Shown piece by piece: positions 3,286 to 40,271 of a stretch of DNA of 64,000 nucleotides (within the stretch, counting starts at the first letter, position 1; each line of letters begins with the position of its first letter). This stretch comes from Bacteroidota bacterium (lineage in GTDB: Bacteria; Bacteroidota; Ignavibacteria; Kapaibacteriales; Kapaibacteriaceae): the NCBI GenBank assembly GCA_039795225.1, contig JBDKEN010000001.1:85610-149609 (forward strand). The letters are read 5' to 3'. Both the position numbers and the translations under genes were made by a program. Below the pieces are notes generated by a model. It was not told the DNA's origin. It saw only the letters and a list, made by a program, of their open reading frames with translations, and searched no databases.

Positions 3286-3341
3286 GTACTGGGTACTGGG
3301 TACTGGGTACTGGGTACTGGGTACTGGGTACTGGGTACTGG
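3286..3341. repeat. Perfect tandem heptamer array (GTACTGG)x8
   Basis: Read directly: unit starts at 3286, 3293, 3300, 3307, 3314, 3321, 3328 and 3335. The first unit begins at the nucleotide after the TAG stop of the 2728-3285 gene. A 7-nt period is incompatible with coding. Confidence 0.95.
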
Positions 3342-3434
3342 GTGTAAAGCAGCTCTCCACAGGTCGAAGTCGATTCGGGTATCCTCAATCGCACGCAGCC
3401 ATCTTTGGTGAGCCACCTCATGCACCAGTCCTTC

Positions 3435-3567
3435 GTACTTAGTACTTAGTAATCAGTAATCAGTACTTGGTAATTAGTCCTTGGTCATTGGTACTTGTTC
3501 CCCAGTACCTAGTACCCAGTACCCAGTACCCAGTACCTAGTACCCAGTACCCAGTACCCAGTACCTA
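3435..3567. repeat. 19 consecutive in-phase degenerate heptamers; the last 9 units (3505-3567) are the inverted complement of the 3286-3341 array
   Basis: Units read in register: GTACTTA x2, GTAATCA x2, GTACTTG, GTAATTA, GTCCTTG, GTCATTG, GTACTTG, TTCCCCA, then GTACCTA, GTACCCA x3, GTACCTA, GTACCCA x3, GTACCTA. The reverse complement of GTACCCA is TGGGTAC, which is the left array read in a rotated register. Confidence 0.9.
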
Positions 3568-3614: not shown

Positions 3615-5453
3615 ATGGCTTTACAGCAGCGCACAGATTACCGAAACATTGCCATCATCGCACACGTTGACCACGGCAAGACAACGTTGGTTGACCACAT
3701 GTTGAAACAGGGCGGGATGTTTCGCGAGAATCAGGTAGTAGCAGACCGGGTGATGGATTCGAACGACCTCGAGAGGGAACGTGGTATCACGATCATGGCG
3801 AAAAATGCCGCCGTTCGTTGGAAGGATATCAAGATCAACATCGTCGACACACCGGGTCACTCCGACTTTGGTGGTGAAGTGGAGCGCGTTCTCTCGATGG
3901 TTGACGGCGTTCTTCTGTTGGTAGATGCTGCAGAGGGACCTCTTCCGCAGACGCGGTTTGTCCTTCGCAAAGCACTTGATATGGGGCTAAAGCCGATTGT
4001 CGTCATCAACAAGATTGACCGTGGCGATGCTCGGCCGCAGGAAGTTTTCGATGAAGTCATGGAGCTCTTCATCAACCTTGGCGCATCGTATGATCAACTC
4101 GATTTCCCGGTGATTTATGCCATTGGGAAGCTTGGCCTAGCGAAGCGGAGTTTGACCGACGAAGCGGATAATCTTGAAGCTCTCTTTGAGGCGATTGTTG
4201 AACACATACCTCCTCCAACGGTTGATGTGGACGTTCCGTTTGCGATGGTAATCTCCGCATTGGACTGGTCGGACTATGTTGGACGAATTGCCATTGGCCG
4301 AATCATCGAGGGGGCTGTCAGCGTTGGTGACAACGTGAATCTGATTAAACCGGATGGTACGCGTGAGTCGTCGCGGATCACCAAGATGTACGTGCATGAA
4401 GGCATCACCCGTGCGGAAACGACCACGGCTGCAGCCGGCGAGGTCATCGCGCTTTCGGGCTTTGAGAATGTATATATCGGCGAGACGATCGCCGACAGCA
4501 CACGTACCGAACCGTTGTCGTACGTCAACATCGAAGAACCAACGATTGCCATGTATTTCATGGTGAACACTTCGCCCCTTGCCGGACGCGAAGGAAAGTT
4601 TGTGACGACGCCGAAGATTCGCGAGCGTCTTTACAAGGAGCTTCGCAACAACGTGTCTCTTCGGGTTGAAGACACCGACTCACCTGACGTTTTCAAGGTT
4701 TCTGGACGGGGTGAGTTGCAGTTGGCAATTCTCATCGAGACAATGCGTCGTGAGGGATATGAATTTGCTGCCTCACGTCCGGAGGTACTCTTCCGGCGTG
4801 ATGCTGACGGCAAGATGTTGGAACCTATTGAGCATGTTACCGTGGATGTTCCACAAGACCACGTAGGAACGGTGATCGAAAGTCTTGGTCGACGCAAAGG
4901 TGAAATGACCGCGATGAACCCTGGCAACGACAGTGTTCGTTGTGAGTTTCTCGTACCTGCTCGCGGACTCATCGGATTCCGTACTGAGTTCCTCACGTCG
5001 ACGCGTGGTCAGGGGATCATTCACCACACATTTGATTCATACCAGCCCTACAAAGGCGCTATTGCTGGGCGTCTACGCGGTGCCTTGGTATCGATGGAGA
5101 CGGGACAATCAACGGCCTATGCACTGGAAATGGTGCAGGAGCGTGGGGTACTGTTTATCGAGCCAGGACAGCCAGTCTACGAAGGCATGATCATCGGCGA
5201 GAATGCCCGTGAAGAGGATCTCAGCGTTAACGCCTGTCGCATGAAGCACCTGACGAATATGCGTTCAAGTGGATCGGATGGTCTCGTGCGTCTCGAGGCT
5301 CCGCGTCAGTTATCACTTGAGCAATGCATTGAGTTTCTCGAAGACGACGAGTTGCTGGAATGTACTCCGGTATCGGTTCGTCTTCGAAAGAAGATCCTCG
5401 ATACCACCATGCGTCAGCGTGCCAAGAAGCGAGAGGCAGCCTCACTCGAATAG
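3615..5453 (+). CDS. typA: Translational GTPase TypA/BipA
   Basis: 612 aa with G motifs AHVDHGKTTL, DTPGH and NKID. Full-length TypA/BipA-like layout. Confidence 0.97.
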   Translation: MALQQRTDYRNIAIIAHVDHGKTTLVDHMLKQGGMFRENQVVADRVMDSNDLERERGITIMAKNAAVRWKDIKINIVDTPGHSDFGGEVERVLSMVDGVLLLVDAAEGPLPQTRFVLRKALDMGLKPIVVINKIDRGDARPQEVFDEVMELFINLGASYDQLDFPVIYAIGKLGLAKRSLTDEADNLEALFEAIVEHIPPPTVDVDVPFAMVISALDWSDYVGRIAIGRIIEGAVSVGDNVNLIKPDGTRESSRITKMYVHEGITRAETTTAAAGEVIALSGFENVYIGETIADSTRTEPLSYVNIEEPTIAMYFMVNTSPLAGREGKFVTTPKIRERLYKELRNNVSLRVEDTDSPDVFKVSGRGELQLAILIETMRREGYEFAASRPEVLFRRDADGKMLEPIEHVTVDVPQDHVGTVIESLGRRKGEMTAMNPGNDSVRCEFLVPARGLIGFRTEFLTSTRGQGIIHHTFDSYQPYKGAIAGRLRGALVSMETGQSTAYALEMVQERGVLFIEPGQPVYEGMIIGENAREEDLSVNACRMKHLTNMRSSGSDGLVRLEAPRQLSLEQCIEFLEDDELLECTPVSVRLRKKILDTTMRQRAKKREAASLE

Positions 5454-5457
5454 GTTC

Positions 5458-6339
5458 ATGCAGAGCATCATCCCCATCCTTGCGTTGATCGCGTGTGCAA
5501 GCCCCCTGCTTGCACTGCAACCAGCTATCCAGGATGACGATGTCCTCATGCGGCTTTCGCTCAAACCCAACGCTACGTATCGGTACGCGATCAATTCGAT
5601 CCTTGAGCAGGACGTTGAAGCCACAGGCGGACCTTCAACGAGTGCCATTACAACAGACCTTGATCTCACGCTCTCCGTGACCGACGTCACACTTGGTCGG
5701 AGTACGCTGAAGTTTGTATCGGAACAGGGTGGCGTGCGAACGCGAACGCTCACCGACGTTCGGGCCCCTTTGATGGATTCGACAGCGCGCCTGAACAACG
5801 GCAAGGGGCTTTCCATTGTTGTCACGTGCGACCCAACGGGACGTGTACTGGCAATTGAGCGTTCCTCCGACGAGGATCACCTTGCCTTACTCAACAGCAT
5901 GCGCGTTTTTGATCGCGTCGTACTGCAGTTCCCCAAGGAGCGCGTGCGCCCGGGCGATCGTTGGGTCTCAGAAATGATCGACACAATGCCCGCTCCGGAG
6001 GGACAGGGCAGCATTATCACCTCGATCGAAATGCAGGAGACATTTACTGCTGTCGTCGACTCATTAGGTATCCCATGTTGGCTCATCGAGGGCGAGTCAT
6101 CCTCGATGAAGATCCACGGTGGAATTGCTGTTTCCGGTATGAACATCGACGTCTGGGGTAACGGGAGGATGCGCACGCGCGCCATGGTCGATTCACGAAC
6201 TGGCCTGCCTATGCGCAGTGAGCTGCAACTGGAAAACTCGATGACGCTGCGCGCTGCCGGTACGAATGATGACCTGGCAGTCCCGAGCAACGCCCGGATG
6301 CGCGTCGTGATCTCTCAGCGCCCAAGGAAGCAAGAATGA
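5458..6339 (+). CDS. Hypothetical secreted protein
   Basis: The in-frame ATG at 5458 gives an MQSIIPILALIACASPLLALQ signal peptide, 4 nt after the typA stop. The longer track start at 5269 overlaps typA and is rejected. No family recognised. Confidence 0.6.
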   Translation: MQSIIPILALIACASPLLALQPAIQDDDVLMRLSLKPNATYRYAINSILEQDVEATGGPSTSAITTDLDLTLSVTDVTLGRSTLKFVSEQGGVRTRTLTDVRAPLMDSTARLNNGKGLSIVVTCDPTGRVLAIERSSDEDHLALLNSMRVFDRVVLQFPKERVRPGDRWVSEMIDTMPAPEGQGSIITSIEMQETFTAVVDSLGIPCWLIEGESSSMKIHGGIAVSGMNIDVWGNGRMRTRAMVDSRTGLPMRSELQLENSMTLRAAGTNDDLAVPSNARMRVVISQRPRKQE

Positions 6340-16785: not shown

Positions 16786-16793
16786 CGGAAACA

Positions 16794-16828
16794 GGTTTCA
16801 GGTTTCAGGTTTCGGGTTTCAGGTTTCA
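16794..16828. repeat. Tandem heptamer array: 5 units, GGTTTCA x4 with one GGTTTCG variant at position 3
   Basis: Units at 16794, 16801, 16808 (GGTTTCG), 16815 and 16822. The last unit contains the TGA stop (TCA on the + strand, 16826-16828) of the OmpA-like gene. Confidence 0.9.
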
Positions 16829-18775
16829 TTTTATAGGTACGACGGCTGTGATCCTTACCACACGCTGCAGCATGCGTTCTTCGGGTAGACGCTGACTCTG
16901 CGAGGTGCCGGGCTCGCCGCGGCCGACGGCTGTTACACGACCCGGGAGCTGGGCGGCAACGGCGCGGGCTCGCTCAAGACTGATGCGATCGTTATCCTCG
17001 GTGGTGCCAATGATGTCCGTGTAGCCCTCCACCTGGATGCGGGCCCCTTTGCCTACGCGGCTCCGCACGAATTCCATCACGCGTCGGTGCTCATCGGTCA
17101 GCTCGGCACTGCGGAACGGAAACACAACAAGTTCAAATCGCTCAATGATGCTGTCGTTTTGACGCTCACGACGCTTGTCAATGAGACGTATGGTCTTGAT
17201 GGCAAGCTCAAGCGTGTCCGATACAGAAGCCCCCTTATGATCGCCGGACAGGGAGAGGCGAAGCTTGCCGCCCTGGATGAGCTCGCGCGCAGCCGCACCA
17301 TCGGGCGTGAAGACGATGTCGTTGGTCAGTGGCCGTGACGATGAGTCTACACGATCATCATTGACCCGCAGACTCCAGCGGTTGATCGGCGTGCCATCAC
17401 TCGAGCGCGCCTTTACCGTCACGCTCGGCGGCGTCATTGCGCCTACGGTGTCGGCTGTTCTGAAAGGAGCTAGCACATCGCTGTTGGATGACGTGATCTC
17501 CACGCGTCGGTTCTCCTCATCGGCAAGGGGCGCTTCAGTGCCGGTAGCGATCGATGCATTCACCGGAAGACGTCGCGCGCGGACCTTTACGCGCTTTGCG
17601 GCAATGCCGTATCCCTGTGTAAGTGCCGAAGCAACCGAGCGTGCCCTACGCAGTGCGATGGTTGTATCGGGGTCGTCGCTTGCACACGTGCCGACAAGCG
17701 TGACGTCTGAAGTTGGGAACTGTCGCATCCGCTCGGCAACAACCGACAGCAGACGATGGTGGAATTGCACCGGTGTGAGCCGCGCCGAGATTGCAGCCGA
17801 TGACGATGATGTCTCATATCGGTTCGGGATCACGTCCGAGCCCCGTTCAAAGAACACGTACGGCAGGATCGGCTGGTAGCGTTCTTCTTCGATCTCTTCG
17901 ATGCGTATCGCCTCGCGCACATCAGCCGACAGCTCGACGCCATACGTGTCCTGCTTGGGTTGCTGCACCGGAGTCTTGGGTGTCTCGGTCTTCGTGACTA
18001 CCGTCTGCGCGGGCTTCTGCGGCTCTGGTCTGCGCGCAGGGGGCTGAGCGGGCACGGTTCCGAACTCGTAGGACAGCCGCAGTCCGATCGACGGAACCGT
18101 GATGGTCCAGTCGGTGACGGACGTCAGATTCGCAAAGCCCCAGGCAAGCCCAACCTCGGGTGTAAGACGCCAGCTGCGTTGCCTATTCAGTGCGATGTCC
18201 AGGCCGACCGAGCTGACGCCGTAGAGCGTGCCGCTCAAGGACTCTGGCACGTTACCACTGCGGACGTTTCGCACGTTCGAGCGGGTATCGGCGAACAACG
18301 CGCCCGATGGTGCGGTAATCTCCTCGCGTGCACGCAAACGTCCGAAGGTGCGCGCTGCATAGCCCCCTCCCAAGCGTACAACGAGATTGCTCCACCGATA
18401 GCCGAGCGACGTCTCAATGCCATACTCGCTCAGCGGTGTTTCGATGCTGTGCGTTATCGCTCCCTGGACGATCGCATTGCCAACGATGATGTCCTGAACC
18501 TCGGTGGTCGAAAGCGTGTGTGAGCGGTCACTGAAGGCAAGGCGCACACTGCCGAAGAGTGAGCTCCAAACGGGAACATCAACGCCCACGCTGAGCTGTC
18601 CGCCCGTGCCCGAGCCCCCATCGAAGGATGGACAGCACGACGGGAACCCGGGCAGTTGCCGGAACGATGCACTAGCCGTGGTGAAGCCAACGGACGTTCC
18701 GGCATCGAGGCGGATCTGTGCAATGACAGATGTGAACTGAAGAACGACAATGCCGATGACAACGAATGCTCTCAT
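16826..18775 (-). CDS. Outer-membrane protein: N-terminal beta-strand-rich domain plus two OmpA_C-like peptidoglycan-binding domains
   Basis: ATG at 18775 (MRAFVVIGIVVLQFTSVIAQ signal peptide) overlaps the upstream stop (ATGA). A ~250-aa beta-rich region and a P/K/Q-rich linker precede two OmpA_C-like segments (..EENRRVEITS.. and ..VEGYTDIIGTTEDNDRISLERARAV..). Confidence 0.85.
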   Translation of the reverse strand: MRAFVVIGIVVLQFTSVIAQIRLDAGTSVGFTTASASFRQLPGFPSCCPSFDGGSGTGGQLSVGVDVPVWSSLFGSVRLAFSDRSHTLSTTEVQDIIVGNAIVQGAITHSIETPLSEYGIETSLGYRWSNLVVRLGGGYAARTFGRLRAREEITAPSGALFADTRSNVRNVRSGNVPESLSGTLYGVSSVGLDIALNRQRSWRLTPEVGLAWGFANLTSVTDWTITVPSIGLRLSYEFGTVPAQPPARRPEPQKPAQTVVTKTETPKTPVQQPKQDTYGVELSADVREAIRIEEIEEERYQPILPYVFFERGSDVIPNRYETSSSSAAISARLTPVQFHHRLLSVVAERMRQFPTSDVTLVGTCASDDPDTTIALRRARSVASALTQGYGIAAKRVKVRARRLPVNASIATGTEAPLADEENRRVEITSSNSDVLAPFRTADTVGAMTPPSVTVKARSSDGTPINRWSLRVNDDRVDSSSRPLTNDIVFTPDGAAARELIQGGKLRLSLSGDHKGASVSDTLELAIKTIRLIDKRRERQNDSIIERFELVVFPFRSAELTDEHRRVMEFVRSRVGKGARIQVEGYTDIIGTTEDNDRISLERARAVAAQLPGRVTAVGRGEPGTSQSQRLPEERMLQRVVRITAVVPIK

Positions 18776-21393
18776 CGTACCACCTCGAAAAGCGTGGTGG
18801 CAACTGTCGATGGCGATTGAACCATAAACACGTACGTGCCTGCGGTCAGCCAGGACGGAATCTGCCATTCCACAGCGTCACCATCTGATGAGCCGACGCC
18901 AAGCTGAATCTCCTCACCAAGCATCGTAACGATCCGAGCCGTTGACGTCCGGGCATCCTCACCGACGGCGCTACCGATAGCCCCCTCGGGTCCGACGGGA
19001 TTCGAGGCAACCGCAACAGCAAGCCGCGCACGTCGGAATGTGACAAAGCGTCCGACCGAGTCGATGCGGCAGATGCCCGCCGCTTTGAATGGCAGCTGCA
19101 CTGGCGTAGCACCGGCAACACATGGGTCAAAGTCGAGACTGTCAACGATGATCGATGTGCTGTCGCGGTCACCGAGCGCAACGCGCAGATCGAAGAATCC
19201 GAGCGTATCGCTTGATGGCTTGCGACGTCCGGTGACCTTGATCGAGCGCAGCGAATCATCGGTTGTTCCGCGGCCAAGGGGCCGTACGGGAAACAGCATG
19301 GTCTTGTTGAAGCGGACAACGGCGGACCAGTCGGTGGGAAGCGACTCCAGTTTCGTTCCGTTCGGAGCAGCAACGCGCATGACAACGCGAACAGTCGATC
19401 CAACCGTTGCACTGTCAGCTCCGGCATAGGACATCAGCAGCGGCGTGCTGCCGCTCGACGATGACGTTATGACCGTAACTGTGTCCGTGGTTACCGAGCA
19501 GCCGTCTGGTGAGAAGACCACAGCATAATACCGACCTGGCGTGCGAACCCTTATCGAGCGAACCTTAACGATGGTATCTGCGCTCAACACGCCAGTAGAC
19601 CAAAAAACACGTTCAATGTTCTGCCCAGAGAGTGTCAGCAGAACGCCCGACGTATCACAAATCGACACTGTGTCTATCGGTGTGAGCTTGACTGACGGCA
19701 GAAGGCCGGGCTTGATAACAATGCTATCGGCGTACTCACAACCACCGGCGTTGTACCTGACATTGTATGTGCCGGCCGTCGTGATCACTCTCGTTGATGA
19801 AACGTTGCCATCTCCCCATACCACATTGGCTGGCGAAGGCTGCAGCGTCAACGTTACACTATCCCCTGTTGCACAGAGCACAGTGTCGGATGCAAGAATC
19901 TTGGTCGTGCTAGCACCGCATCCGATCTTCACAAGGAAACCGTCGCGCTCGCCCCCTGACGATCTCTGAAACACTGGCCCTGGTGCATTGGTACCGGGCA
20001 TGACGGTGCTAGTTGTCGTGCCGCATATGTAGCTCGAGTTGGGGCCTTCGTCGATACCACCGAAGCCAAAGCGGAATTGCTCTGTGTCGAGCGTGAGTTC
20101 ATCAGCGTTACCGCAAAACTCGCTCAGTCCAACTGGATTGGTACCTGGATAAGGATTCAACCGAAACGCACTGAATCGACCAATCTTGCAGAAATAAAAA
20201 CCGTTGGAAAAGAGCAGAGGTCCATTATTCGTATTGCCTCGTGTGAACGAGCACAGGATATCGTCACCTGGTGTGTTTACGTACCACGTAACCGCCGTAA
20301 CGGTGGGCTCTGTTGTTATCAGCAGCATAAATGCATCACCACCCAAAGCACTGCCACCGGCGTAAGGCATACCTCCTGTTGGACTACCAGGAGCTGGGAA
20401 CGGACCACCGTTGTAGAGGCCACAAACACGCAGGGTGAACTTCTCACCACCAGCTCCAGGTTGATTGGAGCGGAACGGCTGCAAGCCATACACAACCTCA
20501 TTGCCTGCTCCGCCGCAATACGTAGACCACTGACACTCCAGCGTAGTGGAGTCTAGTCGTGCTACAAATCCATCATCATCGAAGACGGTGCCAAGTCGCG
20601 CTGGCTGAAGCACGGGGTTGCCCGGTAGCTTATCACTTCGGGTGCGCCCACCCACGTATACGTGGCCGAGCGTGTTGCGTACACGCACCACCAGCACTTC
20701 ATCAAGGTAGCGTCCGCCGAAATATGTAACCACATCTGGCACAATTTGCCAGCCGCTTGGTGACTGAACGAGACTCAACTTGGCAACAAACCCATCTCCA
20801 ATGCCTTGCCCAGCAAGGCCACCACCCTGATAACTAGCCTGCATAGCATTCGCCGTTGTCGGGAAGTCGCGCGACTCTGTGACGCCCCCTACGTAGATCG
20901 TGTTTCCTACAATGTCAACACTTGTTGCAACATCTGCCTCTGATCCTCCGAGAAACTGGTCGCGAGCGAACCGTTCTCCGAGCGTTGTAAACGTCGATAC
21001 TGTTGCATCCACATTGCCGCATTGATTGGCTATTGAGCCCACCATGACGAGCACTCCCGCATCTGAAATCGCAAGCTCTAGTGGTCGGACGCAACTGAAA
21101 TACTGCAGCCAACGCATCTCCCCTGTTGGACTAAACGAAGCGAGATAGCCACCGGGTCCAACTGTGTCAAATGAAGTTGGCACATTACGGGGCTTGGGGA
21201 AATCCGTGCTCGTGAACACTCCGCACACATAGACATTGTCATCACGATCGACGCAGAGATCGCGCATTTCGTCCTTCCCAGAGCCGCCAAGGAAGGTTGC
21301 CCATTGCACTTCTAGCTGCTTTTGGGCAGACACAGTCACTGATGCTAGCCTGAACATCAGAAACATCAACACCACATAATGACCGAGATTCAT
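18772..21393 (-). CDS. Large secreted SBBP-type beta-propeller repeat protein with a T9SS-like C-terminal sorting domain
   Basis: 873 aa with signal peptide MNLGHYVVLMFLMFRLASVTVSAQ. SBBP-like repeats include FLGGSGKDEMRDLCVDRDDNVYVCGVFTSTDFP and FLGGSEADVATSVDIVGNTIYVGGVTESRDFP. The C-terminal ..LTAGTYVFMVQSPSTVATTLFEVVR resembles a T9SS type A CTD. Confidence 0.8.
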   Translation of the reverse strand: MNLGHYVVLMFLMFRLASVTVSAQKQLEVQWATFLGGSGKDEMRDLCVDRDDNVYVCGVFTSTDFPKPRNVPTSFDTVGPGGYLASFSPTGEMRWLQYFSCVRPLELAISDAGVLVMVGSIANQCGNVDATVSTFTTLGERFARDQFLGGSEADVATSVDIVGNTIYVGGVTESRDFPTTANAMQASYQGGGLAGQGIGDGFVAKLSLVQSPSGWQIVPDVVTYFGGRYLDEVLVVRVRNTLGHVYVGGRTRSDKLPGNPVLQPARLGTVFDDDGFVARLDSTTLECQWSTYCGGAGNEVVYGLQPFRSNQPGAGGEKFTLRVCGLYNGGPFPAPGSPTGGMPYAGGSALGGDAFMLLITTEPTVTAVTWYVNTPGDDILCSFTRGNTNNGPLLFSNGFYFCKIGRFSAFRLNPYPGTNPVGLSEFCGNADELTLDTEQFRFGFGGIDEGPNSSYICGTTTSTVMPGTNAPGPVFQRSSGGERDGFLVKIGCGASTTKILASDTVLCATGDSVTLTLQPSPANVVWGDGNVSSTRVITTAGTYNVRYNAGGCEYADSIVIKPGLLPSVKLTPIDTVSICDTSGVLLTLSGQNIERVFWSTGVLSADTIVKVRSIRVRTPGRYYAVVFSPDGCSVTTDTVTVITSSSSGSTPLLMSYAGADSATVGSTVRVVMRVAAPNGTKLESLPTDWSAVVRFNKTMLFPVRPLGRGTTDDSLRSIKVTGRRKPSSDTLGFFDLRVALGDRDSTSIIVDSLDFDPCVAGATPVQLPFKAAGICRIDSVGRFVTFRRARLAVAVASNPVGPEGAIGSAVGEDARTSTARIVTMLGEEIQLGVGSSDGDAVEWQIPSWLTAGTYVFMVQSPSTVATTLFEVVR

Positions 21394-23537
21394 CGTATTC
21401 CTTCATCAAGCATGAGCTTTGTGCGGACGTTGGTTCCGAAACGCGCGACGATCACATATGGCTGATGGTGGTTCTGTGGCAAATAGTCGGCACCGACACC
21501 CACACATCGTCCATCCAGGAGGTACCATACCACTTCATCGGCACTCTGCAATTGTTCTCGGGTGAGGCCCTCGACTTCGTCTACCGACGAAATCGGCAGA
21601 GGCCATGGTTCCTTCAGTCGTAGTACCCTTCCATCTGCTGTGCCCACAATCATCGACTCTGTATCGGAATGCACCGATACAAAAACAACGGGTGCCCCTC
21701 CTGTTTCAAGGGTCTTCACACGCAAGCCCGATGCAGCTTCGACGATCACGACCGTACCGTCGTCCTGTCCTACCGAAAAGTGCTTGGCAGACTTTGAACA
21801 GGCAATGCGATTCCCAAGGAATCCATCGATGAAGGGCTTACCGATTGCCGGAAGAACGTTGACTTCTTGTAACGTCTCGGCATCTATGATCACGGCGTCG
21901 ATAGCATCTGCACTTGATAGTCCATACTGCATGAGCACCAATACATCAGACTCTCCAACACGCGAAGCGGGCACAAGGATATCGATCACGGATGTAGGAA
22001 CAGACTTGGTCGCTAGAATCTGTCCGGTTAGCCCGTCCAGGACTCGTAGCGTACTGTCGGCGCAGCTTGTAACAATGCGCCCATTGCGTGTGGAGGTTGC
22101 CACCCAAGGGATACAGGTAGCAATAGCGGACGAGGTAAGGGGCTCGGGGTTGCCAGATGTAAGAGCGAATGCACTATCACTTGTTAGGACGATTATTCGG
22201 TCAGTCGTCCTGCTCGCAACAACTGAGGTAGCTCTTCGAGAGAACGAGGTATCCATGGATTTCGATTGAACGTCATACCGGCGCAAACGTCGTATACCAT
22301 CATTGGCAACGGGTGTGAAGTACAACGACTGCATGGCGTTATCAAACACCATGGAAGCCGGCGTAGCAAAGCCCCAAGGCTGGTTCCCAACCGTATGAGT
22401 AACAGAACCATTTGCAACATCGATAAGACGAATCCGATCCGAGCTTGACGACGCGGTAGCTATCATTTTTCCATCGATAGACCAAGCCGCACGGCGTAGG
22501 TACCCAGTCATGCCCTCGAGGTCGAACATGAACCTATCCGTCGTGAGATCCCATACCTGGACATCGCTACCCTGTGTGGCCACGTAGAGACGTTTTGCAG
22601 GCTGGTCGACGGCGAGGGCCGAAACCTGGCGTCCAAACTCGATGATCGTATCAGCATCGGAGCGCCCGTCCGTGTACCGACGCAGTCCGGCAAAGAGCAC
22701 GCCCGCCGTAATCGTTCGAGTTGCGTCTTCAAGAACAACGAACTCAGGTCCACCAGCGATGCCATAGTCTACATCACGTCTACTCTGAACGGCGCCTGTG
22801 GCTGCATCCACGGTAAGGATTGCATTCGATGCAGCCATCCGGATGGTAGTGGATGTGGCATAGGCCGCAGCATAAATAGGAGAACTTCCTCCAGAGCCGG
22901 GTGCAGCACCGTCAACCACCGCACGTATGGCTAGTCCAGGAACCCCTACAATTCGGGCAGGGTTCGGCACTGATGGCGAGTCCTTTCCACCTGCCCGCGA
23001 CGTTGTGATTGTCATGGAAGCACCGTCTGGGTTCACGGCAATGGAGCGGACAGGCGACCCAAGGCGCATCGTGTCGAGAATTGCTCGATTGTTCAGATCC
23101 CACCTTCGCACCACACCCGCATCGTCACCTACGGCAACCCAATCTCCATTTGGAGAGCAAGCAATATCATTTACTTGAAGGGTGTGCTTTCCCAGAGTAA
23201 AGAGTAGTCGCCCTGATTCGATCGACCAACACCTTACCCAACCGTCGGCATCACCCGTGATCACGATCGCTTCATCCGGCGTTATAGCCATGGAGCGTCC
23301 ACCCAGGAATCGCGTCGTGATCAATGTGAGCGTACTACTCTTTGTGGCTAGGTCCCAAACACGCACAGAACCATCAAAGGAGCCAACCAGCAGACGTCCG
23401 TTTGATAGCGGCACTAAGTCGTAAGCAGGACGAGTGTTTCCGCCACGTTCCCAAAGCACATCAGGTATCTGCGATTGTGCCGTAAGCAAACAAGAGACAC
23501 AGCAGAACGCAGCCAGCAATTGAACGGTGCTAAACAT
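21390..23537 (-). CDS. Secreted WD40-repeat beta-propeller protein
   Basis: ATG at 23537 gives an MFSTVQLLAAFCCVSCLLTAQSQ signal peptide. WD40-like repeats include DGSVRVWDL, DGWVRCWSI and AGVVRRWDL. The stop overlaps the next gene's start (ATGA at 21390-21393). Confidence 0.8.
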   Translation of the reverse strand: MFSTVQLLAAFCCVSCLLTAQSQIPDVLWERGGNTRPAYDLVPLSNGRLLVGSFDGSVRVWDLATKSSTLTLITTRFLGGRSMAITPDEAIVITGDADGWVRCWSIESGRLLFTLGKHTLQVNDIACSPNGDWVAVGDDAGVVRRWDLNNRAILDTMRLGSPVRSIAVNPDGASMTITTSRAGGKDSPSVPNPARIVGVPGLAIRAVVDGAAPGSGGSSPIYAAAYATSTTIRMAASNAILTVDAATGAVQSRRDVDYGIAGGPEFVVLEDATRTITAGVLFAGLRRYTDGRSDADTIIEFGRQVSALAVDQPAKRLYVATQGSDVQVWDLTTDRFMFDLEGMTGYLRRAAWSIDGKMIATASSSSDRIRLIDVANGSVTHTVGNQPWGFATPASMVFDNAMQSLYFTPVANDGIRRLRRYDVQSKSMDTSFSRRATSVVASRTTDRIIVLTSDSAFALTSGNPEPLTSSAIATCIPWVATSTRNGRIVTSCADSTLRVLDGLTGQILATKSVPTSVIDILVPASRVGESDVLVLMQYGLSSADAIDAVIIDAETLQEVNVLPAIGKPFIDGFLGNRIACSKSAKHFSVGQDDGTVVIVEAASGLRVKTLETGGAPVVFVSVHSDTESMIVGTADGRVLRLKEPWPLPISSVDEVEGLTREQLQSADEVVWYLLDGRCVGVGADYLPQNHHQPYVIVARFGTNVRTKLMLDEGIR

Positions 23538-23663
23538 GACAAAATACCCCTGTGTATTGACGATTAGATGTTCACACCCGTGTCCAACTGCAATGTCACA
23601 TCCGTGGCTGGATGGCCAGTGAAATGTGACGTTTGTCTGCATTCAGGGGTGTATACTTGCTAC

Positions 23664-24221
23664 GTGCTTACCCCACCAGCGCATATTGTCCCAACAGAAT
23701 TGCTTTGTGCAGTAAACAACCCTGCAACGAGAGATGCCTCTTTCGCAGAATTCTACGATGCGCTCAGCAGACACGTGTATATGTACGCACTGCGCATGAC
23801 ATCAAACGAGTTAGATGCTTCTGACGTAACGCAGGAGACGTTCATCCGCGTACATGCACACCTCGTAAGGGGCAACACCATCGTTGATCCACTCCCCTTC
23901 TGCCTGATGATCGCACGTCAGCGCGTGATCAACATGCACCGCGACCGCAAGGTCACGGTGGAGCTCGATGAACAGCATAGCACTGTCGACCCCTATATCG
24001 ACATTGAGCGCGAGGACATCCGCGAACACGTCGAGCATGCCGTTGCGCGTCTGCCGGTGCTTCTGCGCGATGCGTTTGTCTTGAGATACTACGATGGTCT
24101 TTCGTATGAAACGATTGCAACGATGATCTCAGAATCAGCCGGCACCGTGCGTATGCGCGTGCATCGCGCCAAGGCCATCCTTCGTCAGTCGCTGGCGCAT
24201 CTCGTCAGGGAGAAAAGCTGA
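23664..24221 (+). CDS. ECF-type RNA polymerase sigma-70 family factor
   Basis: Region 2 (DASDVTQETFIRVHAHL) and a region 4 HTH (LSYETIATMISESAGTVRMRVHRAKAIL) are present. The start is uncertain. The track ATG at 23568 adds a Cys-rich ~30-aa extension, whereas GTG 23664 or TTG 23700 fit the family length better. Confidence 0.85.
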   Translation: MLTPPAHIVPTELLCAVNNPATRDASFAEFYDALSRHVYMYALRMTSNELDASDVTQETFIRVHAHLVRGNTIVDPLPFCLMIARQRVINMHRDRKVTVELDEQHSTVDPYIDIEREDIREHVEHAVARLPVLLRDAFVLRYYDGLSYETIATMISESAGTVRMRVHRAKAILRQSLAHLVREKS

Positions 24222-25264
24222 TGCGCGCCAGTGCTCACATCCTTATCCAGCGATATCTCGACGGAGAGCTCTCCGAGCTCGAGCTCCAGGCCTTTCTCCA
24301 GGACCTTTCGCAGAGCCCAGAGCTTGCATCAATGCTGGAGCAAGAAGTCAACATCGAAGCAGCGATCATCAACGATGCGTATTCCATAGAGCCCCCTGCC
24401 GAGCTACGTGCTGCCGTGTTGCAGTCGCTTCCTGACGTAGGTTCTTCCTGGACACTCAGCGTGGTCGGTCAGATGGCGTTGAGTATTGCCATGGGCGGAG
24501 TGTTCCTGCTTACATCGCTTGTCAGTATTGGTACAAACAGCATGCGACGGGTAGATGCTCCCGCGTCGAAGGTTGCACCCGTAATTGCCACTTCGGCCTC
24601 GTCCCGTGCGGTCGAACATTCGAGGTCCGCACCAGGCAGAGTTCTCAGCATCGATGCATCAATTCCTCGATCATTCTCATCACGTGACGTTGTTGCCGAC
24701 GTCGAGAGTGCTGATGTCTTGGTTGAGCCGACACGACACGTGCACATGCCGTTTGAGACTCTGCAACGTTCATGGGGTGAGCAGCACTCTGATCGATTCC
24801 TCGGCCTGGGTGGTGCATCCGTCTCGTCGCTTCCGACAGGTCTGTTCGGTGGGATGGTGGGAACCAGCATGGTCTCGCTGCGATACGAGCTCGACCTTCT
24901 CGAAGATTCACAGGTCTTCGTCGAGGCAGGGGGCTTGCAGCAGCCGCGCACGTCAACAGCATACGTCAACGGTGCAACGGCTTCCGTCATCTCCAGTGGC
25001 ATATCGCCATTTGTGAGCATTGGCATTGCCGGAAGTGTCCTCGATCTAGACATGCTCGGCCGGCCCATCAGCGGCGCAGCGTCGATCGGCGTCACGAGCG
25101 CCGGCCCCATTGCTATAGCGGATGTATCGGCTCCGATCATTGACCTCGGCCACACCACGCTTGACGTGGGCGTGCGCTTCTCCGCGCGGTTCGATCTTGG
25201 TTCACGTAGCACCAGCTCCGTCAGCGCAGCCCCTTTCATCCGTGTGGGCATTCCTCTGAGGTGA
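24221..25264 (+). CDS. Putative membrane anti-sigma factor
   Basis: The start overlaps the sigma gene stop (TGATG). The N-terminal LIQRYLDGELSELELQAFLQDL looks like an anti-sigma helix. One TM helix (VVGQMALSIAMGGVFLLTSLVSI) precedes a ~240-aa beta-rich extracytoplasmic domain of unknown family. Confidence 0.65.
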   Translation: MRASAHILIQRYLDGELSELELQAFLQDLSQSPELASMLEQEVNIEAAIINDAYSIEPPAELRAAVLQSLPDVGSSWTLSVVGQMALSIAMGGVFLLTSLVSIGTNSMRRVDAPASKVAPVIATSASSRAVEHSRSAPGRVLSIDASIPRSFSSRDVVADVESADVLVEPTRHVHMPFETLQRSWGEQHSDRFLGLGGASVSSLPTGLFGGMVGTSMVSLRYELDLLEDSQVFVEAGGLQQPRTSTAYVNGATASVISSGISPFVSIGIAGSVLDLDMLGRPISGAASIGVTSAGPIAIADVSAPIIDLGHTTLDVGVRFSARFDLGSRSTSSVSAAPFIRVGIPLR

Positions 25265-25336
25265 GAGAGCGCTTCACGCAGGTTTGAGGTGTGGGGTTTG
25301 GGGTGTGGGGTCATTTGTCATTCGTCATTGGTCACT
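25265..25336. repeat. Composite array element, copy 1: leader GAGCGCTTCACGCA plus 8 in-phase heptamers
   Basis: The leader is at 25267-25280, 2 nt after the TGA stop of the anti-sigma gene. The units from 25281 are GGTTTGA, GGTGTGG, GGTTTGG, GGTGTGG, GGTCATT, TGTCATT, CGTCATT, GGTCACT. Confidence 0.85.
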
Positions 25337-25364
25337 TTTCATGATATACATTTCTTTCGTTGTA

Positions 25365-25372
25365 TATCTTTG
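25365..25372 (+). promoter_or_regulatory. Candidate -7 promoter box TATCTTTG upstream of vapB
   Basis: Perfect TAnnTTTG, 24 nt before the vapB ATG and 28 nt after the array. Confidence 0.4.
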
Positions 25373-25396
25373 TGCTGAAATTTCAGGACCGACACT

Positions 25397-25627
25397 ATGC
25401 GCGTATCAAAATGGGGTAATAGTCTGGCCGTGCGACTTCCGGCCAGCATTGTCGAGGAGTTGAACCTTAAGGAGGGCGACGAGATCGAACTCGTAAGCTC
25501 CGATATGGAATCATTTATCCTTCATCGGTACGACAATCCCGCGCAGCTTCTCGAGCGCATCCGACGCTTCAGGGGGCGACTCCCCAAGGGATACAACTTC
25601 GATCGGGAGGGGGCTCATGAGCGCTAA
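25397..25627 (+). CDS. vapB: AbrB/MazE/SpoVT-family antitoxin (VapB-type)
   Basis: 76 aa. MRVSKWGNSLAVRLPASIVEEL is the classical swapped-hairpin AbrB-type antitoxin N-terminus. Overlaps the PIN gene by 11 nt. Confidence 0.85.
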   Translation: MRVSKWGNSLAVRLPASIVEELNLKEGDEIELVSSDMESFILHRYDNPAQLLERIRRFRGRLPKGYNFDREGAHER

Positions 25628-26021
25628 GACGTTCATCGACACGAACGTCCTGCTCTACCTCCTCTCGCATGATGCGCGCAAAGCGTCGTCCGTTGAGCGT
25701 CTGCTCCTGCAGCAGCCCACCATCAGCGTACAGGTGTTGAATGAGATCGTTGCGGTTGCCACGAGGAAGCTCCGCATGCCGATGCCCGAGATACTCGAGT
25801 TCTGTCAGGTCATCCGCCGTCTCTGCAACGTCGAGCCAATCACGCCGGACCATCATGATCTTGCTCTATCGATCATGCAACGATTCAACTACAGCATATA
25901 CGATGCTCTCATCATTGCCTCTGCCCTTCTCGCAGACTGTCGAAGGCTCTCTACGGAAGACCTCCAGCATGGCCAGGTCATTTTGAAGCAGCTGAGAGTA
26001 GAAAATCCTTTTCGAGTGTGA
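25617..26021 (+). CDS. vapC: PIN-domain toxin VapC
   Basis: 134 aa with the acidic PIN residues in FIDTNV, LNE and YDALI. Small size and antitoxin pairing fit VapC. Confidence 0.9.
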   Translation: MSAKTFIDTNVLLYLLSHDARKASSVERLLLQQPTISVQVLNEIVAVATRKLRMPMPEILEFCQVIRRLCNVEPITPDHHDLALSIMQRFNYSIYDALIIASALLADCRRLSTEDLQHGQVILKQLRVENPFRV

Positions 26022-26117
26022 GCGCTTGGCGCAGGTGTGAGGTTTGGGGTGTGAGGTAATTGGTAATTGGTAATTGGTAATTCGTCATTAGTAATTGGTC
26101 ATTGGTAATTGGTATTT
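26020..26117. repeat. Composite array element, copy 2: leader GAGCGCTTGGCGCA plus 12 in-phase heptamers
   Basis: The leader at 26020-26033 overlaps the vapC TGA stop (26019-26021). The units from 26034 are GGTGTGA, GGTTTGG, GGTGTGA, GGTAATT x4, CGTCATT, AGTAATT, GGTCATT, GGTAATT, GGTATTT. Orientation and internal order match copy 1. Confidence 0.85.
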
Positions 26118-26153
26118 GGCCCCTTACCTCCGTTCCTCCGTAATTTCTTTCCC

Positions 26154-27374
26154 ATGCTTCGCTCCCTGTACGTTGATCTGAACTCATACTTCGCTTCTGT
26201 TGAGCAGCAGGAGCAGCCGGAGCTCCGTGGACGTCCGGTGGCGGTAGTGCCGGTGATGGCCGACTCTACATGTGCGATCGCGGCGTCGTATGAGGCGAAG
26301 AAGTTTGGCGTCAAGACGGGAACGATCATCGCCGAGGCCAAGCAGAAGTGTCCGGAGCTGGTGCTGGTACAGGCCCGGCATTCACTGTATGTGGAGTATC
26401 ATCACCGCATTGTGGAAGCCGTTGAACAGACGATCCACGTCAAGAGTGTGAACTCGATCGATGAAATGGTATGCGAGCTTACGGGCTCTGATCGGCAGCG
26501 CGAAAAAGCCATAGAGATCGCTCATGCGGTGAAGGCATCGATCAAGGCCAATGTGGGTGACACAATGACCTGCAGCGTGGGCATCGGCCCGAACGACTAT
26601 CTGGCCAAGACGGCGTCGGATATGCAGAAGCCCGATGGACTGGTGATCGTTGAAGAGGAGCAATTGCCTGACGTGCTGTACGCACTCGAGCTGCGCGACC
26701 TCTGCGGCATCGGCAAGCAAATGCATGCGCGGCTTCGCAAGCATGGCATCTTCACCGTGGAAATGCTCTGCACAGCACCGAAGCACCAGCTGCGCGAGGT
26801 ATGGGGCGGCATCGAGGGAGAACGCATGTGGGCCCGCCTGCGAGGGCAGGATGTACCGATGGCCGAAACGCAGAAGTCCACGGTCGGACACTCTCACGTT
26901 CTCGAGCCCGAACACCGCTCTGTTCAGGGGGCGAAAGCCGTCGTGCATCGTCTTCTGCAGAAGGCCGCCATGCGCCTGCGTCAGTACGAGCTCCATACGG
27001 CGGAGGTCACCGTTAGCGTACGCTATGTCGATGGAACCAAGTGGAAGCAGGCACGCGAGATCACACCCACACAGGATGTGCTGCAGCTGACGACGATCAT
27101 GAGCACCATGCTCGAGGCCATGCCAGAGCTTGGAACGCCGTTCAAGGTGACGATCGCGCTTAACAAGGTGAGCCCCCTTGAATCAACTCCACTACCGATC
27201 TTCGAAAACGTTGGCCCAGCTCGCTCGGCACTGAACAACTCGATCGATGCCATCAACAAGAAGTATGGCAAGAACACGCTCTACGTCGGCACCGCCTGGA
27301 ACGCCCTCTCGAGCGCACCAATGCGCATTGCGTTCAACCACATTCCGGATGCGGAAGTGGATGATGATGAGTAA
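26154..27374 (+). CDS. Y-family DNA polymerase (DinB/ImpB/UmuC superfamily)
   Basis: ATG at 26154 gives MLRSLYVDLNSYFASVEQ (catalytic Asp motif). The SIDEM catalytic D-E motif is present. 406 aa. The first 15 codons of the track ORF read out of the heptamer array and are rejected. Confidence 0.9.
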   Translation: MLRSLYVDLNSYFASVEQQEQPELRGRPVAVVPVMADSTCAIAASYEAKKFGVKTGTIIAEAKQKCPELVLVQARHSLYVEYHHRIVEAVEQTIHVKSVNSIDEMVCELTGSDRQREKAIEIAHAVKASIKANVGDTMTCSVGIGPNDYLAKTASDMQKPDGLVIVEEEQLPDVLYALELRDLCGIGKQMHARLRKHGIFTVEMLCTAPKHQLREVWGGIEGERMWARLRGQDVPMAETQKSTVGHSHVLEPEHRSVQGAKAVVHRLLQKAAMRLRQYELHTAEVTVSVRYVDGTKWKQAREITPTQDVLQLTTIMSTMLEAMPELGTPFKVTIALNKVSPLESTPLPIFENVGPARSALNNSIDAINKKYGKNTLYVGTAWNALSSAPMRIAFNHIPDAEVDDDE

Positions 27375-27567
27375 CCAATGTTTCATGGATTAGGAATCTG
27401 CAGATTTCACAGATTCGGCGAGCTAGATGGTCGTCGATCTCGCGATGACGTGGCACAGCGCTCTTGCGCTTGCCCGTACTGTTGACCCAGATGGAATGAC
27501 GACCTCCCTCCCGAAGTAATCGGCATCCATGTGATTCAAGGTGCGCGACCAGGTCGCGCAGTTTCAC
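27334..27567 (-). CDS. hicA: HicA-family toxin, with a possibly frameshifted 3' end
   Basis: The GTG start at 27567 overlaps the hicB stop (GTGA). MKLRDLVAHLESHGCRLLREGGRHSIWVN..VPRHREI matches HicA, including the conserved His. The last ~24 aa are atypical and overlap the polymerase gene by 41 nt. An alternative frame gives ..NLQIPNP* ending at 27383. Confidence 0.8.
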   Translation of the reverse strand: MKLRDLVAHLESHGCRLLREGGRHSIWVNSTGKRKSAVPRHREIDDHLARRICEICRFLIHETLVTHHHPLPHPECG

Positions 27568-27776
27568 AGTGCTATTGCATACTCCTCAAACTCGGCCCCA
27601 GCCTCACGACGAGACTGCTCCCGATTGAGTTCGATGACCTCTGCGAGAGTGACGCGGAGCGTATCAAGGAGATCTTCCTTCGTCGACTCCTGGCAGTTAA
27701 CGCCTGGAATCTCTTCGATCCAGCCTATCCACCACTCTCCACTGCGCTTGATGACCGCAGTATAGACTTGCGACAT
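27564..27776 (-). CDS. hicB: HicB-family antitoxin (short form)
   Basis: MSQVYTAVIKRSGEWWIGWIEEIPGVNCQESTKEDLLDTL matches the HicB/UPF0150 N-terminal fold. Alternative starts lie at 27788 and 27812. It is only ~70 aa, and no C-terminal DNA-binding domain is evident. Confidence 0.75.
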   Translation of the reverse strand: MSQVYTAVIKRSGEWWIGWIEEIPGVNCQESTKEDLLDTLRVTLAEVIELNREQSRREAGAEFEEYAIAL

Positions 27777-27931
27777 GATTCTATCCATGTTGTTTGCTCC
27801 AGTAAGATACAATGAAACAATTGTGCCTCATGACTGACGATGAGTCTACTCGCGAAAGGGTCTCGAGAGAACTCACAGTGAATGTGCATTCATGGCATAA
27901 AAACGTGACATTGTGATGCGCCCTTTGCCCC

Positions 27932-39353: not shown

Positions 39354-40271
39354 ATGTTTGGTGAAATGGACCTGAGAAGCGCCATACGGTCATTTCTTTC
39401 CACACTCGATGTGGAAAAATCTGCAAGTCGGCACACCACGATGACCTATGAAACGGCACTCGACCAGTTCTGTGTCTATCTGGCCGAATTCGCCGATCCG
39501 CTCCCCAATGTTGATGAGATAACAGAGGCGGACATCCGTCCGTTCCTTGGATGGCTGCATGACAGGGGGCTTGGCAAGACGTCCATCCGGTTAAAGCTCG
39601 CAGCCGTTCGCAGCCTGTTTCGCTTTCTACTCCGCAATGGTGTCATCGACCGAAATCCAGCACGTTTGCTGGCCTCACCCAAAACATCGCGCCCCTTGCC
39701 CTCGTTCATCAATGTGCACGAGGCATCACGTCTGTGGGACGGGTTCGACCGCGACAGTGTCAGTGGTCTGCGTGATAGGGCCCTGTGCGAACTGCTGTAT
39801 GGATCAGGTTTGCGTATCAGTGAAGCTCTTGCGCTGGACATTCATCAGGTTGACGCTGCGAGTCAGTCCATCAAGGTAACCGGGAAAGGCGCAAAGCAGC
39901 GTATTGTGCCGTTAACACGTGAAACCATTGATGCTGTGCGCTCCTACCAGGAACGACGACTCGAACTTCAGCCGGCCAGCGACGAACTGGCACTGTTTCT
40001 TGGCGACCGTGGCAAACGCATGACAAGCTCCTCCGCGTGGCGAATCGTGCGCCGGGCCCTAGGTCCAGTTACCGAGGCACGACGGAAGAGTCCACACGTG
40101 CTGCGTCACTCCTTCGCAACGCATCTGCTTGATAACGGGGCAGACCTCACAGCTGTCTCTGATATGCTTGGGCATTCATCCCTGTCAACCACACAGATTT
40201 ACACCCACGTGAGTGTTGAGCGCCTCAAAGAAGCGTACAAACGCGCTCATCCACGTGGCTCGCATTCGTAA
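39354..40271 (+). CDS. Tyrosine recombinase XerC/XerD family
   Basis: 305 aa with a SAM-like N-domain. Catalytic motifs are LYGSGLRISEAL, HVLRHSFATHLL and LGHSSLSTTQIYTHV. Confidence 0.9.
   Translation: MFGEMDLRSAIRSFLSTLDVEKSASRHTTMTYETALDQFCVYLAEFADPLPNVDEITEADIRPFLGWLHDRGLGKTSIRLKLAAVRSLFRFLLRNGVIDRNPARLLASPKTSRPLPSFINVHEASRLWDGFDRDSVSGLRDRALCELLYGSGLRISEALALDIHQVDAASQSIKVTGKGAKQRIVPLTRETIDAVRSYQERRLELQPASDELALFLGDRGKRMTSSSAWRIVRRALGPVTEARRKSPHVLRHSFATHLLDNGADLTAVSDMLGHSSLSTTQIYTHVSVERLKEAYKRAHPRGSHS

Follow-up and report, generated by a model that had tools for sequence, protein, structure and literature searches.

A type II toxin–antitoxin (TA) gene pair, vapBC, is bracketed by two direct copies of a composite repeat element in a 64-kb stretch of DNA from a bacterium of the Kapaibacteriaceae (contig JBDKEN010000001.1; hereafter the window, with positions numbered from its first letter). 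Each copy starts at or next to the stop codon of the gene upstream and consists of a short leader followed by heptanucleotide arrays of two types. The leader and its G-rich heptamers are a dispersed element, specific neither to vapBC nor to cassettes. The explanation that we favor, with about even confidence, is that these tails are heptamer arrays at the seams between gene modules, similar to the short tandemly repeated repetitive (STRR) sequences and long simple sequence repeats (LSSR), and that vapBC is bracketed because two modules that each carry a tail, an OmpA...anti-sigma block and vapBC itself, adjoin.

The two copies have the same internal order: a TGA stop codon, a leader, GGTKTGR heptamers and then GGTMATT heptamers. 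On the left, the TGA of a putative anti-sigma factor gene occupies 25262-25264 and the leader starts 2 nt further; on the right, the leader overlaps the vapC stop. Only the operator/promoter of vapB, vapB and vapC lie between the copies. A sequence-only reading of the locus had described the direct copies, their order, their positions at TGA stops and the minimal content between them, and all of these features are in the sequence.

25267-25280, + strand: left leader GAGCGCTTCACGCA, 14 nt (17 nt with the next GGT)
25281-25308, + strand: left G-rich heptamers GGTTTGA GGTGTGG GGTTTGG GGTGTGG (sequence, Tandem Repeats Finder [TRF])
25309-25336, with a partial unit to 25342, + strand: left GTCATT-type heptamers GGTCATT TGTCATT CGTCATT GGTCACT (sequence, TRF)
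25343-25372, + strand: vapBC operator/promoter, inverted repeat GATATACA-N10-TGTATATC overlapping TATCTTTG
25397-25627, + strand: vapB antitoxin gene, 76 aa, MazE/AbrB-type SpoVT fold (Pfam PF04014, E = 4e-13)
25617-26021, + strand: vapC PIN-domain toxin gene, 134 aa (Pfam PF01850), 11-nt overlap with vapB
26020-26033, + strand: right leader GAGCGCTTGGCGCA, overlapping the vapC stop TGA at 26019-26021
26034-26054, + strand: right G-rich heptamers GGTGTGA GGTTTGG GGTGTGA (sequence, TRF)
26055-26119, + strand: right GGTAATT/GGTCATT array, 9.3 units in the window

The 17-nt leader pattern GAGCGCTTNNCGCAGGT, with up to two mismatches allowed, matched the 64 kb at two positions, 25267 and 26020, where 0.10 matches were expected; two or more matches occurred in 0 of 100 shuffled sequences. 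The two leaders are identical at 15 of 17 positions, and the repeat search aligned the copies as an ungapped direct repeat of 68 nt with 76% identity and a spacing of 753 nt. TRF reported period-7 arrays at 25281-25342 and 26033-26119, which are two of the five heptamer arrays in the window (the others being 3285-3343, 3427-3567 and 16792-16828); periods 5, 6, 8 and 9 gave 0-2 arrays each. The resemblance thus exceeds that of generic heptamers, as the leader is specific and recurs in other Kapabacteria. Five contigs encode the exact VapC; of three places displayed, two include the complete stretch from the anti-sigma gene, across vapBC, to a Y-family polymerase gene, and other near-identical contigs end within the right array. 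Because several contigs carry this layout, it is not an assembly artefact of a single contig. We conclude that the arrangement of leaders and arrays is real and non-random.

Searches for RNA structure, terminators and Rfam families gave nothing that would account for the element or point to another role. Whether or not G-quadruplex terms were included, folding of the elements yielded z-scores between +1.0 and -2.0 relative to shuffled sequences. A search of the whole window against Rfam yielded nothing at the gathering threshold; a snoRNA-like match in 25150-26250 (E = 0.67) was taken as chance. Neither intrinsic terminators nor sigma-70 promoters were found in 24800-26600, and the window contains no tRNA genes.

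To place the leader in a wider context, we scanned one genome per species for the leader plus its first units, and six DNA stretches matched. Three belong to Candidatus Kapaibacterium-type metagenome-assembled genomes (MAGs; L011, L015 and L016). The other three (in Pseudoroseomonas, a cyanobacterial MAG and an alphaproteobacterial MAG) were set aside as chance matches; the cyanobacterial one, which was inspected, lacks heptamers. A scan of metagenome contigs gave two matches, both by chance in unrelated coding sequences, in a collection that evidently does not contain this lineage. The family alignment has the consensus GAGCGCTTnnCGCAGGTkTGAGGTkTG... and covers five independent loci in three genome lineages, namely that of the window with its relative L001 and two other MAGs. 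The window copies match the leaders of other genomes at 15/17 to 16/17 positions, and the strict pattern occurs once or twice per MAG.

All leader copies are co-oriented with the upstream gene and lie at its end, within 5 nt of the stop codon or overlapping it. In L011 the leader overlaps the TGA of a class II aminoacyl-tRNA synthetase gene; in L015 it encodes the last six codons (ERFAQV) of a Rieske oxygenase and the first heptamer supplies the stop; in L016 it follows the higA antitoxin gene by 5 nt, and this tail is 93% identical to window positions 25267-25311 (45 nt, leader plus G-rich units). As the tail follows synthetase and oxygenase genes as well as higA, we conclude that the leader and G-rich tail form a dispersed element that is not restricted to vapBC or to cassettes. 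A hairpin element, GTCATCCCYGCGAAAGCRGGGATC, follows tails in L011, L016 and L027; neither this element nor the REP (repetitive extragenic palindromic) hairpin GTCATCCCYGCGAAAGCRGGGAT occurs in the window. Heptamer arrays with quite different units are abundant in the related loci L011, L016, L017 and L022, and there are essentially none in the relatives L002, L004, L005-8, L018-21, L027 and L030. Among 13 arrays in Kapabacteria loci, 10 have the stop codon of a real gene at or within their edge. A limited literature search found no description of the leader or of heptamer arrays in Kapabacteria.

All fetched loci were compared with the window by BLAST, as genome fragments. The putative anti-sigma gene is the last gene of a conserved OmpA-SBBP-(WD40)-sigma-anti-sigma module that spans 8.5 kb in the window; its name is taken from its position, as it has no Pfam match.

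23568-24221, + strand: extracytoplasmic function (ECF)-type sigma-70 factor gene (Pfam Sigma70_r2, Sigma70_r4_2)
24221-25264, + strand: putative anti-sigma factor gene, 347 aa, sharing an ATGA with the sigma gene (orthologues)
16792-16828, - strand: (AAACCTG)5 array (CAGGTTT on the + strand), beginning in the TGA stop of an OmpA-family gene (TRF)

The true start of the sigma gene is probably later, as it is called at 146-200 aa in relatives including L009 and L010. The (AAACCTG)5 array forms the other edge of the module and adjoins the feoA promoter region. A WD40 beta-propeller gene (750 aa, 21390-23642, - strand) lies between the SBBP and sigma genes in the window, L001 and L009; the orthologous module of L002 and L005-8 does without it, and no arrays flank the insertion.

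The most informative relative was the contig L001, which matches window positions 21582-25311 with 96.8% DNA identity over 3.7 kb and is therefore regarded as the same species. It keeps the anti-sigma gene, an identical left leader and the G-rich units, and it is without vapBC, the polymerase gene and the left GTCATT-type units; homology ends at 25311. Past this point L001 has a hairpin and then minus-strand genes, including one for a TonB-dependent receptor, in a neighbourhood resembling that downstream in L002, a relative at 80% identity. Because L001 keeps the left leader and G-rich block without vapBC, we assign both to the anti-sigma module. The anti-sigma stop is TGA in the window and L001, where in both it sits within a heptamer-like GGTGAGA, and is TAG or TAA without a tail in more distant orthologues. 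Between 16.8 and 26.2 kb, all boundaries of homology blocks shared with relatives (16817-16833, 25262/25311, 25341-25343, 26012-26028 and 26121) are array edges. Gene order beyond the anti-sigma gene differs even in relatives at 80% identity, and only in this strain group are that gene and the polymerase gene neighbours. Since each flanking gene carries its own leader elsewhere, the bracket is better read as two tailed modules in juxtaposition than as a duplication that arose on insertion of vapBC.

The gene pair itself is a type II VapBC by its gene order, overlap, domains and predicted active-site residues; the acidic residues D8, E43, D96 and D115 of VapC are invariant in an alignment of 16 relatives. 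The operator parts lie at 25343-25350 (GATATACA), 25361-25368 (TGTATATC) and 25365-25372 (TATCTTTG), and TATCTTTG fits TAnnTTTG, the consensus of the Bacteroidota-type -7 box in promoters of the Fibrobacteres–Chlorobi–Bacteroidetes (FCB) group. The operator/promoter is kept along with vapBC in L026, L027 and L030. Across all vapBC relatives, BLAST homology begins at 25341-25360 and stops at 26012-26028; for those in three other contexts it extends from the operator (25341-25343) to the last codons. From these limits we conclude that the portable unit, of ~680 bp, consists of the operator/promoter, vapB and vapC only. Relatives with 71-77% VapC identity encode 132 aa, have a native TAG stop and are without arrays. 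The window protein ends in ...NPFRV-TGA, compared with ...NPF-TAG in these relatives, and its stop lies inside a GTKTGA unit. Truncation of the VapC C-terminus by the element was considered and rejected, as the PIN domain is complete and the stop is simply shifted by two codons. In L026, VapC is 88% identical and has the same RV-TGA extension, again with the stop in a GTKTGA unit, an SF1 helicase gene is the upstream neighbour, and an apparent degenerate leader follows vapC. In L027, the seam upstream of the vapBC relative (4240-4640) is occupied by hairpin elements, not heptamer arrays: REP-like hairpins GTCATCCCCGCGAAAGCGGGGATC and their complement, CCCACGGCTTCAGCCGTGGG and short GTGACAA repeats. 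VapC and polymerase homologues are labelled Kapabacteria, Ignavibacteria or Bacteroidota.

The TA modules that precede the polymerase gene differ from lineage to lineage.

26154-27374, + strand: Y-family (DinB-like) DNA polymerase gene (Pfam IMS, IMS_C, IMS_HHH_1)
27334-27567, - strand: hicA (Pfam HicA_toxin)
27564-27812, - strand: hicB-like gene (no Pfam match)

The hicA and polymerase genes converge, with hicA covering the last 41 nt of the polymerase gene, so that in the window a TA module lies on either side of the latter (vapBC and hicA/hicB-like). No terminator-like site was found between vapC and the polymerase gene, and for this reason vapBC is probably co-transcribed into the polymerase gene, a prediction made from sequence. 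In L018-L021, whose polymerase is 75% identical, the order is mgtE, feoB, feoA, polymerase, SBP_bac_5, OmpA and a large ASH protein, which matches the window on both outer sides. Four small genes including a HI1420-type antitoxin gene precede the polymerase gene in L018 and L020 and are absent from L019 and L021; this is a presence/absence polymorphism of a TA module at the polymerase-upstream hot spot. The four genes, all on the minus strand, form a 1.2-kb block (~4770-5980) between feoA and the polymerase gene, with sharp junctions and no heptamers; the contigs with and without it encode an identical polymerase protein.

A higBA module precedes the polymerase gene in L017 (96% polymerase protein identity) and in L022 and L023 (76%). 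Heptamers of the CCCAnAA type occupy the whole interval from the higA stop to the polymerase start in L017; CAACCTG heptamers abut the polymerase ATG in L022, where (GTGACGA)10 lies before higB, and arrays abut the start also in L023. The order in L016 is feoA, GGTTTTG-type heptamers, higBA, leader plus G-rich heptamers, hairpins, a DUF4143 ATPase gene, (GGTCATT)2.7, a hairpin and the polymerase gene; the GGTCATT units of L016, together with the 35 nt that precede the ATG, are the counterpart of the right array region of the window. The higBA module has identical 624-nt limits in three genomes, ending at the higA stop, and begins just after an array in two of the three. In sum, the polymerase gene is preceded by vapBC in the window, by higBA in L017 and L022, by higBA and the ATPase gene in L016, by the four small genes in L018 and L020 and by nothing in L019 and L021. 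In the window the OmpA...anti-sigma and vapBC modules lie between feoA and the polymerase gene, and the three arrays there are the three seams. These results bear out in part the cassette polymorphism that had been anticipated, as different TA modules lie upstream of the polymerase gene and presence/absence occurs within one species, but no near-identical contig without vapBC was seen.

Small GC-rich hairpin units (GACGGCTGCGCCGTG, GACGCCTTCGGCGTG, GGACCTGCGGTG) form a tandem array 3' of the polymerase gene in L017 (2586-2844), where the array begins in the polymerase stop codon, and in L022 (4340-4680). The (GTGACGA)10 array of L022 spans 2264-2334, and ~30 complementary units (TCGTCAC/TTGTCAC/TCGTAAC) lie downstream of the polymerase gene at 4689-4901; these inverted arrays enclose the higBA-polymerase segment and contain the stop codons of both outer genes. 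An inverted pair occurs also far from vapBC in the window, at 3285-3567: (GGTACTG)8, its start within the stop codon TAG of a 185-aa ORF (open reading frame), is followed by an 83-nt spacer, mixed AGTACTT/AGTAATC/GGTAATT/GGTCATT units and (CCCAGTA)9, which ends 48 nt before the ATG of a 612-aa ORF (3615-5453, translational-GTPase-like by eye). The (GGTACTG)8 and (CCCAGTA)9 arrays are reverse-complementary and share one intergenic region.

The arrays vary in length and in unit. In L009, otherwise 99.7% identical over 16.4 kb, the right array is longer than in the window, with 15.3 instead of 9.3 units; the additional 42 nt are a six-unit duplication. Correspondingly, vapC and the polymerase gene are 175 nt apart in both JGI contigs, compared with 133 nt in the window. 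Following a shared GATACGGAAAC, the orthologous site is occupied by (CAGGTTT)5 in the window and by GGTTTTG/GGTATTG in L016 (2339-2386), which suggests concerted evolution of an old array. Both the length change and the homogenised units fit slipped-strand mispairing. The left and right copies agree without mismatch over 13 nt at most (25 nt with two mismatches), and efficient RecA recombination in Escherichia coli usually needs ~23-27 bp; with at most 13 nt of exact identity, deletion of vapBC between the copies should be rare. Loss of a TA pair is, moreover, counter-selected by the stable toxin, and the near-identical contigs seen, which either carry vapBC or break in the right array, are consistent with such counter-selection in that none was without vapBC.

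From these observations we propose that the flanking elements belong to a family of 3' tails that is particular to this lineage and present in some of its Candidatus Kapaibacterium genomes. In each tail a conserved 14-17 nt leader GAGCGCTTNNCGCAGGT precedes (GGTKTGR)n and usually other heptamers or a small hairpin element. Such tails may be one form of the heptanucleotide arrays that lie between gene modules and typically start at the upstream stop codon. The most economical history would have three steps. The seam between feoA and the polymerase gene would already have held, as it does in L016, a TA module followed by a leader/G-rich/GGTMATT tail; the OmpA...anti-sigma module, bringing along the leader/G-rich tail that it has in L001, would then have been placed upstream; and the two tails would thereby have come to bracket vapBC. 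Arrays would grow and shrink by slipped-strand mispairing, and their common G/T-rich units may offer short homology for joining, replacing and losing modules by homology- or microhomology-assisted recombination, with no dedicated recombinase. Deletion of vapBC between the copies would be possible in principle, presumably rare and counter-selected. The replacement of native stop codons at the joints (anti-sigma gene, vapC and the oxygenase gene of L015) is a striking regularity.

Several points weigh against this proposal. No recombination event was directly observed, and the genomes were examined as fragments. Seams fall naturally in intergenic DNA, where arrays can also accumulate passively; the arrays that coincide with joints may be a cause of rearrangement, a remnant of it or such passive accumulation in spacers. 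Arrays are absent from the seams of the WD40 gene, of hicAB/adh_short and of the L018-versus-L019 indel, and their presence at 3 of 8 seams versus 0 of ~10 conserved junctions in the compared stretch is marginal by a hand-calculated Fisher test (p ~0.07). The difference in array length could partly reflect assembly collapse of the 42-nt duplication. Lastly, slippage alone hardly explains why a 17-nt leader should be conserved between species and between loci, which hints at a specific function or a mobile mini-element outside this proposal.

An alternative, which the sequence-only reading had put forward and which we consider unlikely, is that a circular or incoming vapBC cassette carrying one array recombined (Campbell-type) into a single pre-existing array, leaving two copies that permit precise excision. 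The direct orientation, the same internal order and the 68-nt repeat at 76% identity fit this model, and the limits of the vapBC module are minimal and sharp. The left copy is moreover a hybrid, with its leader and G-rich part common to L001 and its GTCATT part not, and the GGTMATT units before the polymerase gene are common to L016, as if the right copy were half cassette and half chromosome. However, the anti-sigma and polymerase genes are adjacent in no relative, so that no single ancestral array lay between them for a cassette to enter or to duplicate. An empty site with the anti-sigma gene, a single array and the polymerase gene was found at none of the loci of anti-sigma and polymerase orthologues, and no vapBC-less allele was seen among near-identical contigs, which together with the 13-nt maximum of exact identity argues against the arrays as sites of precise excision. 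Nor are the vapBC relatives elsewhere bracketed, those at 71-77% VapC identity having no arrays, and leaders are present after housekeeping genes too. Within vapBC and next to it there is no recombinase gene; the nearest in the window, 13 kb off, encodes a tyrosine recombinase (305 aa, 39354-40271, + strand; Phage_integrase and SAM_1) of XerC/XerD-like size and architecture, with no evident link to the arrays. Thus, of the cassette idea there remain a compact, portable vapBC and arrays that mark seams, but not an element that belongs to cassettes.

We also regard as unlikely, to a similar degree, that the tails are cis-acting elements of expression whose bracketing of vapBC is incidental. Possible roles would be heptamers recognised by a post-transcriptional or DNA-binding regulator, suppression of antisense transcription (the opposite strand being rich in C and poor in G) or a spacer of variable length that tunes read-through from the TA genes into the polymerase gene. 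The strict position and orientation of the leader relative to stop codons at five independent loci, its conservation across species, the arrays that fill the stop-to-start interval in L017 or abut the polymerase start in L022 and L023, the lack of a terminator after vapC and the variation of the right array by whole units between strains would all suit such roles, and start-codon-proximal TAACTGA repeats, proposed as regulator sites, offer a precedent (PMC4679880). On the other hand, the units before orthologous polymerase genes are completely different (GGTAATT, CCCAnAA, CAACCTG), which speaks against binding to one particular sequence; RNA folding showed no significant structure, leader copies are very few (one or two per MAG by the strict pattern), and close relatives manage without a tail. 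Very unlikely, in our estimation, is a neutral coincidence in which the arrays arose independently by slippage and the resemblance of the copies has neither historical nor functional meaning. Heptamer arrays with many different units are indeed scattered in these genomes, and the G-rich unit consensus is, by eye, common to all family members. Yet slippage does not account for a non-repetitive 17-nt leader that matches at 15/17 between the copies and at 15/17-16/17 to other genomes, for two of its very few copies lying only 753 nt apart, or for the co-orientation of every copy with its upstream gene.

Compared with known systems, the seam arrays are most like STRR/LSSR. Heptamers are the commonest long simple repeats according to the survey by Mrazek et al. 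(2007), as cited in PMC4679880. Like STRR and LSSR, the arrays in Kapabacteria have a period of 7, are mostly intergenic, occur at several loci with several unit types per genome, are patchy in phylogenetic distribution and vary in length by whole units, the last with the caveat of assembly collapse. GGTCATT is a cyclic permutation of TTGGTCA, which we take to be the unit of STRR2, and CCCAGTA is one base from CCCCAGT, presumably that of STRR1. The differences are the host (Kapabacteria of the FCB group, not cyanobacteria), the non-repetitive 14-17 nt leader before the G-rich arrays, and composite arrays that start at stop codons and switch unit type abruptly. The TAACTGA repeats of Beggiatoaceae, cyanobacteria and some Bacteroidetes (MacGregor, 2015; PMC4679880) are likewise intergenic direct heptamer repeats, and assemblies break in both kinds of array. 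Most TAACTGA sets consist of 2-6 copies right before start codons and were proposed as translational regulator sites, and in Gramella and Aequorivita long arrays occur where gene neighbourhoods differ from those of relatives, with a role in rearrangement suggested (PMC4679880). The arrays described here have another unit sequence, abut stop codons and flank TA modules, and a direct reading found no TAACTGA in the window arrays. In enterobacteria and cyanobacteria, intrastrand triplex motifs have been linked to genomic instability, with more rearrangement between close relatives at the loci that carry them (Holder et al., 2015; PMC4666352). Such motifs resemble our arrays as short repetitive motifs prone to non-B DNA structure at rearranged loci, but are a different sequence class, and the present arrays are known from sequence alone.

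The locus also invites comparison with integrons, and in a reading that we consider rather less likely still than the cassette and expression models, leaders and heptamer tails would be the cis joints of an integron-like shuffling of modules, independent of a recombinase or driven by an unknown enzyme. Tails would be installed precisely at the last sense codon and replace stop codons, and arrays would be portable seams for recombination, at which TA and other modules become stacked, exchanged and stabilised in hot spots such as the feoAB-dinB interval. The small, often TA-encoding modules that each have a recurring 3' element, stacked at one hot spot with content that differs between relatives, are indeed reminiscent of integron cassettes, which include TA cassettes in chromosomal integrons. 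In contrast to these, neither element has an inverted repeat or an attC-type imperfect palindrome, their folding energy does not differ from that of shuffled sequences, and the repeats are direct heptamers; vapBC has its own promoter, and the tail also follows housekeeping genes. There is no integron integrase at the locus, where the neighbours are the sigma/anti-sigma and polymerase genes and the only tyrosine recombinase of the window is the XerC/D-like one. As short dispersed elements at gene 3' ends the tails recall REP and bacterial interspersed mosaic elements (BIME), but the window copies lack a hairpin, the leader palindrome is 3-4 bp, and there are only one or two copies per MAG. Transposons and miniature inverted-repeat transposable elements (MITE) differ in that no terminal inverted repeats occur at 25343 and 26021, and a MITE target-site duplication in that the flanking repeat is at least 68 nt, inexact, and exact over no more than 13 nt. 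An integrase islet with attL/attR is not matched either, as only vapB and vapC are recognised between the repeats and the window has no tRNA. Finally, the E. coli dinB-yafN-yafO-yafP operon, with its LexA-controlled TA pair downstream of dinB (PMC3105422, PMC2814082), likewise links a Y-family polymerase gene to a type II TA pair, co-transcription being predicted in the window; here, however, TA modules lie upstream (vapBC or higBA) as well as downstream (hicAB) and are separated by heptamer arrays.

Heptanucleotide arrays have been catalogued for decades in cyanobacteria, Beggiatoaceae, Bacteroidetes and others without an agreed function. This locus is a compact and comparable case in a different lineage, with arrays exactly where exchangeable modules meet. 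Its novel features are Kapabacteria as the host, a conserved leader that defines a sub-family of tails, the stop-codon-precise junctions and a TA hot spot whose modules are delimited by arrays. Should the arrays promote exchange, they would be a simple, integron-free route to variable regions of the cassette type; otherwise, the locus still shows TA modules and simple repeats accumulating together at rearrangement-prone seams. The same chromosomal seam holds different TA modules beside an error-prone polymerase gene, and the likely co-transcription of the two would be a separate link, from stress-responsive TA promoters to mutagenic repair.

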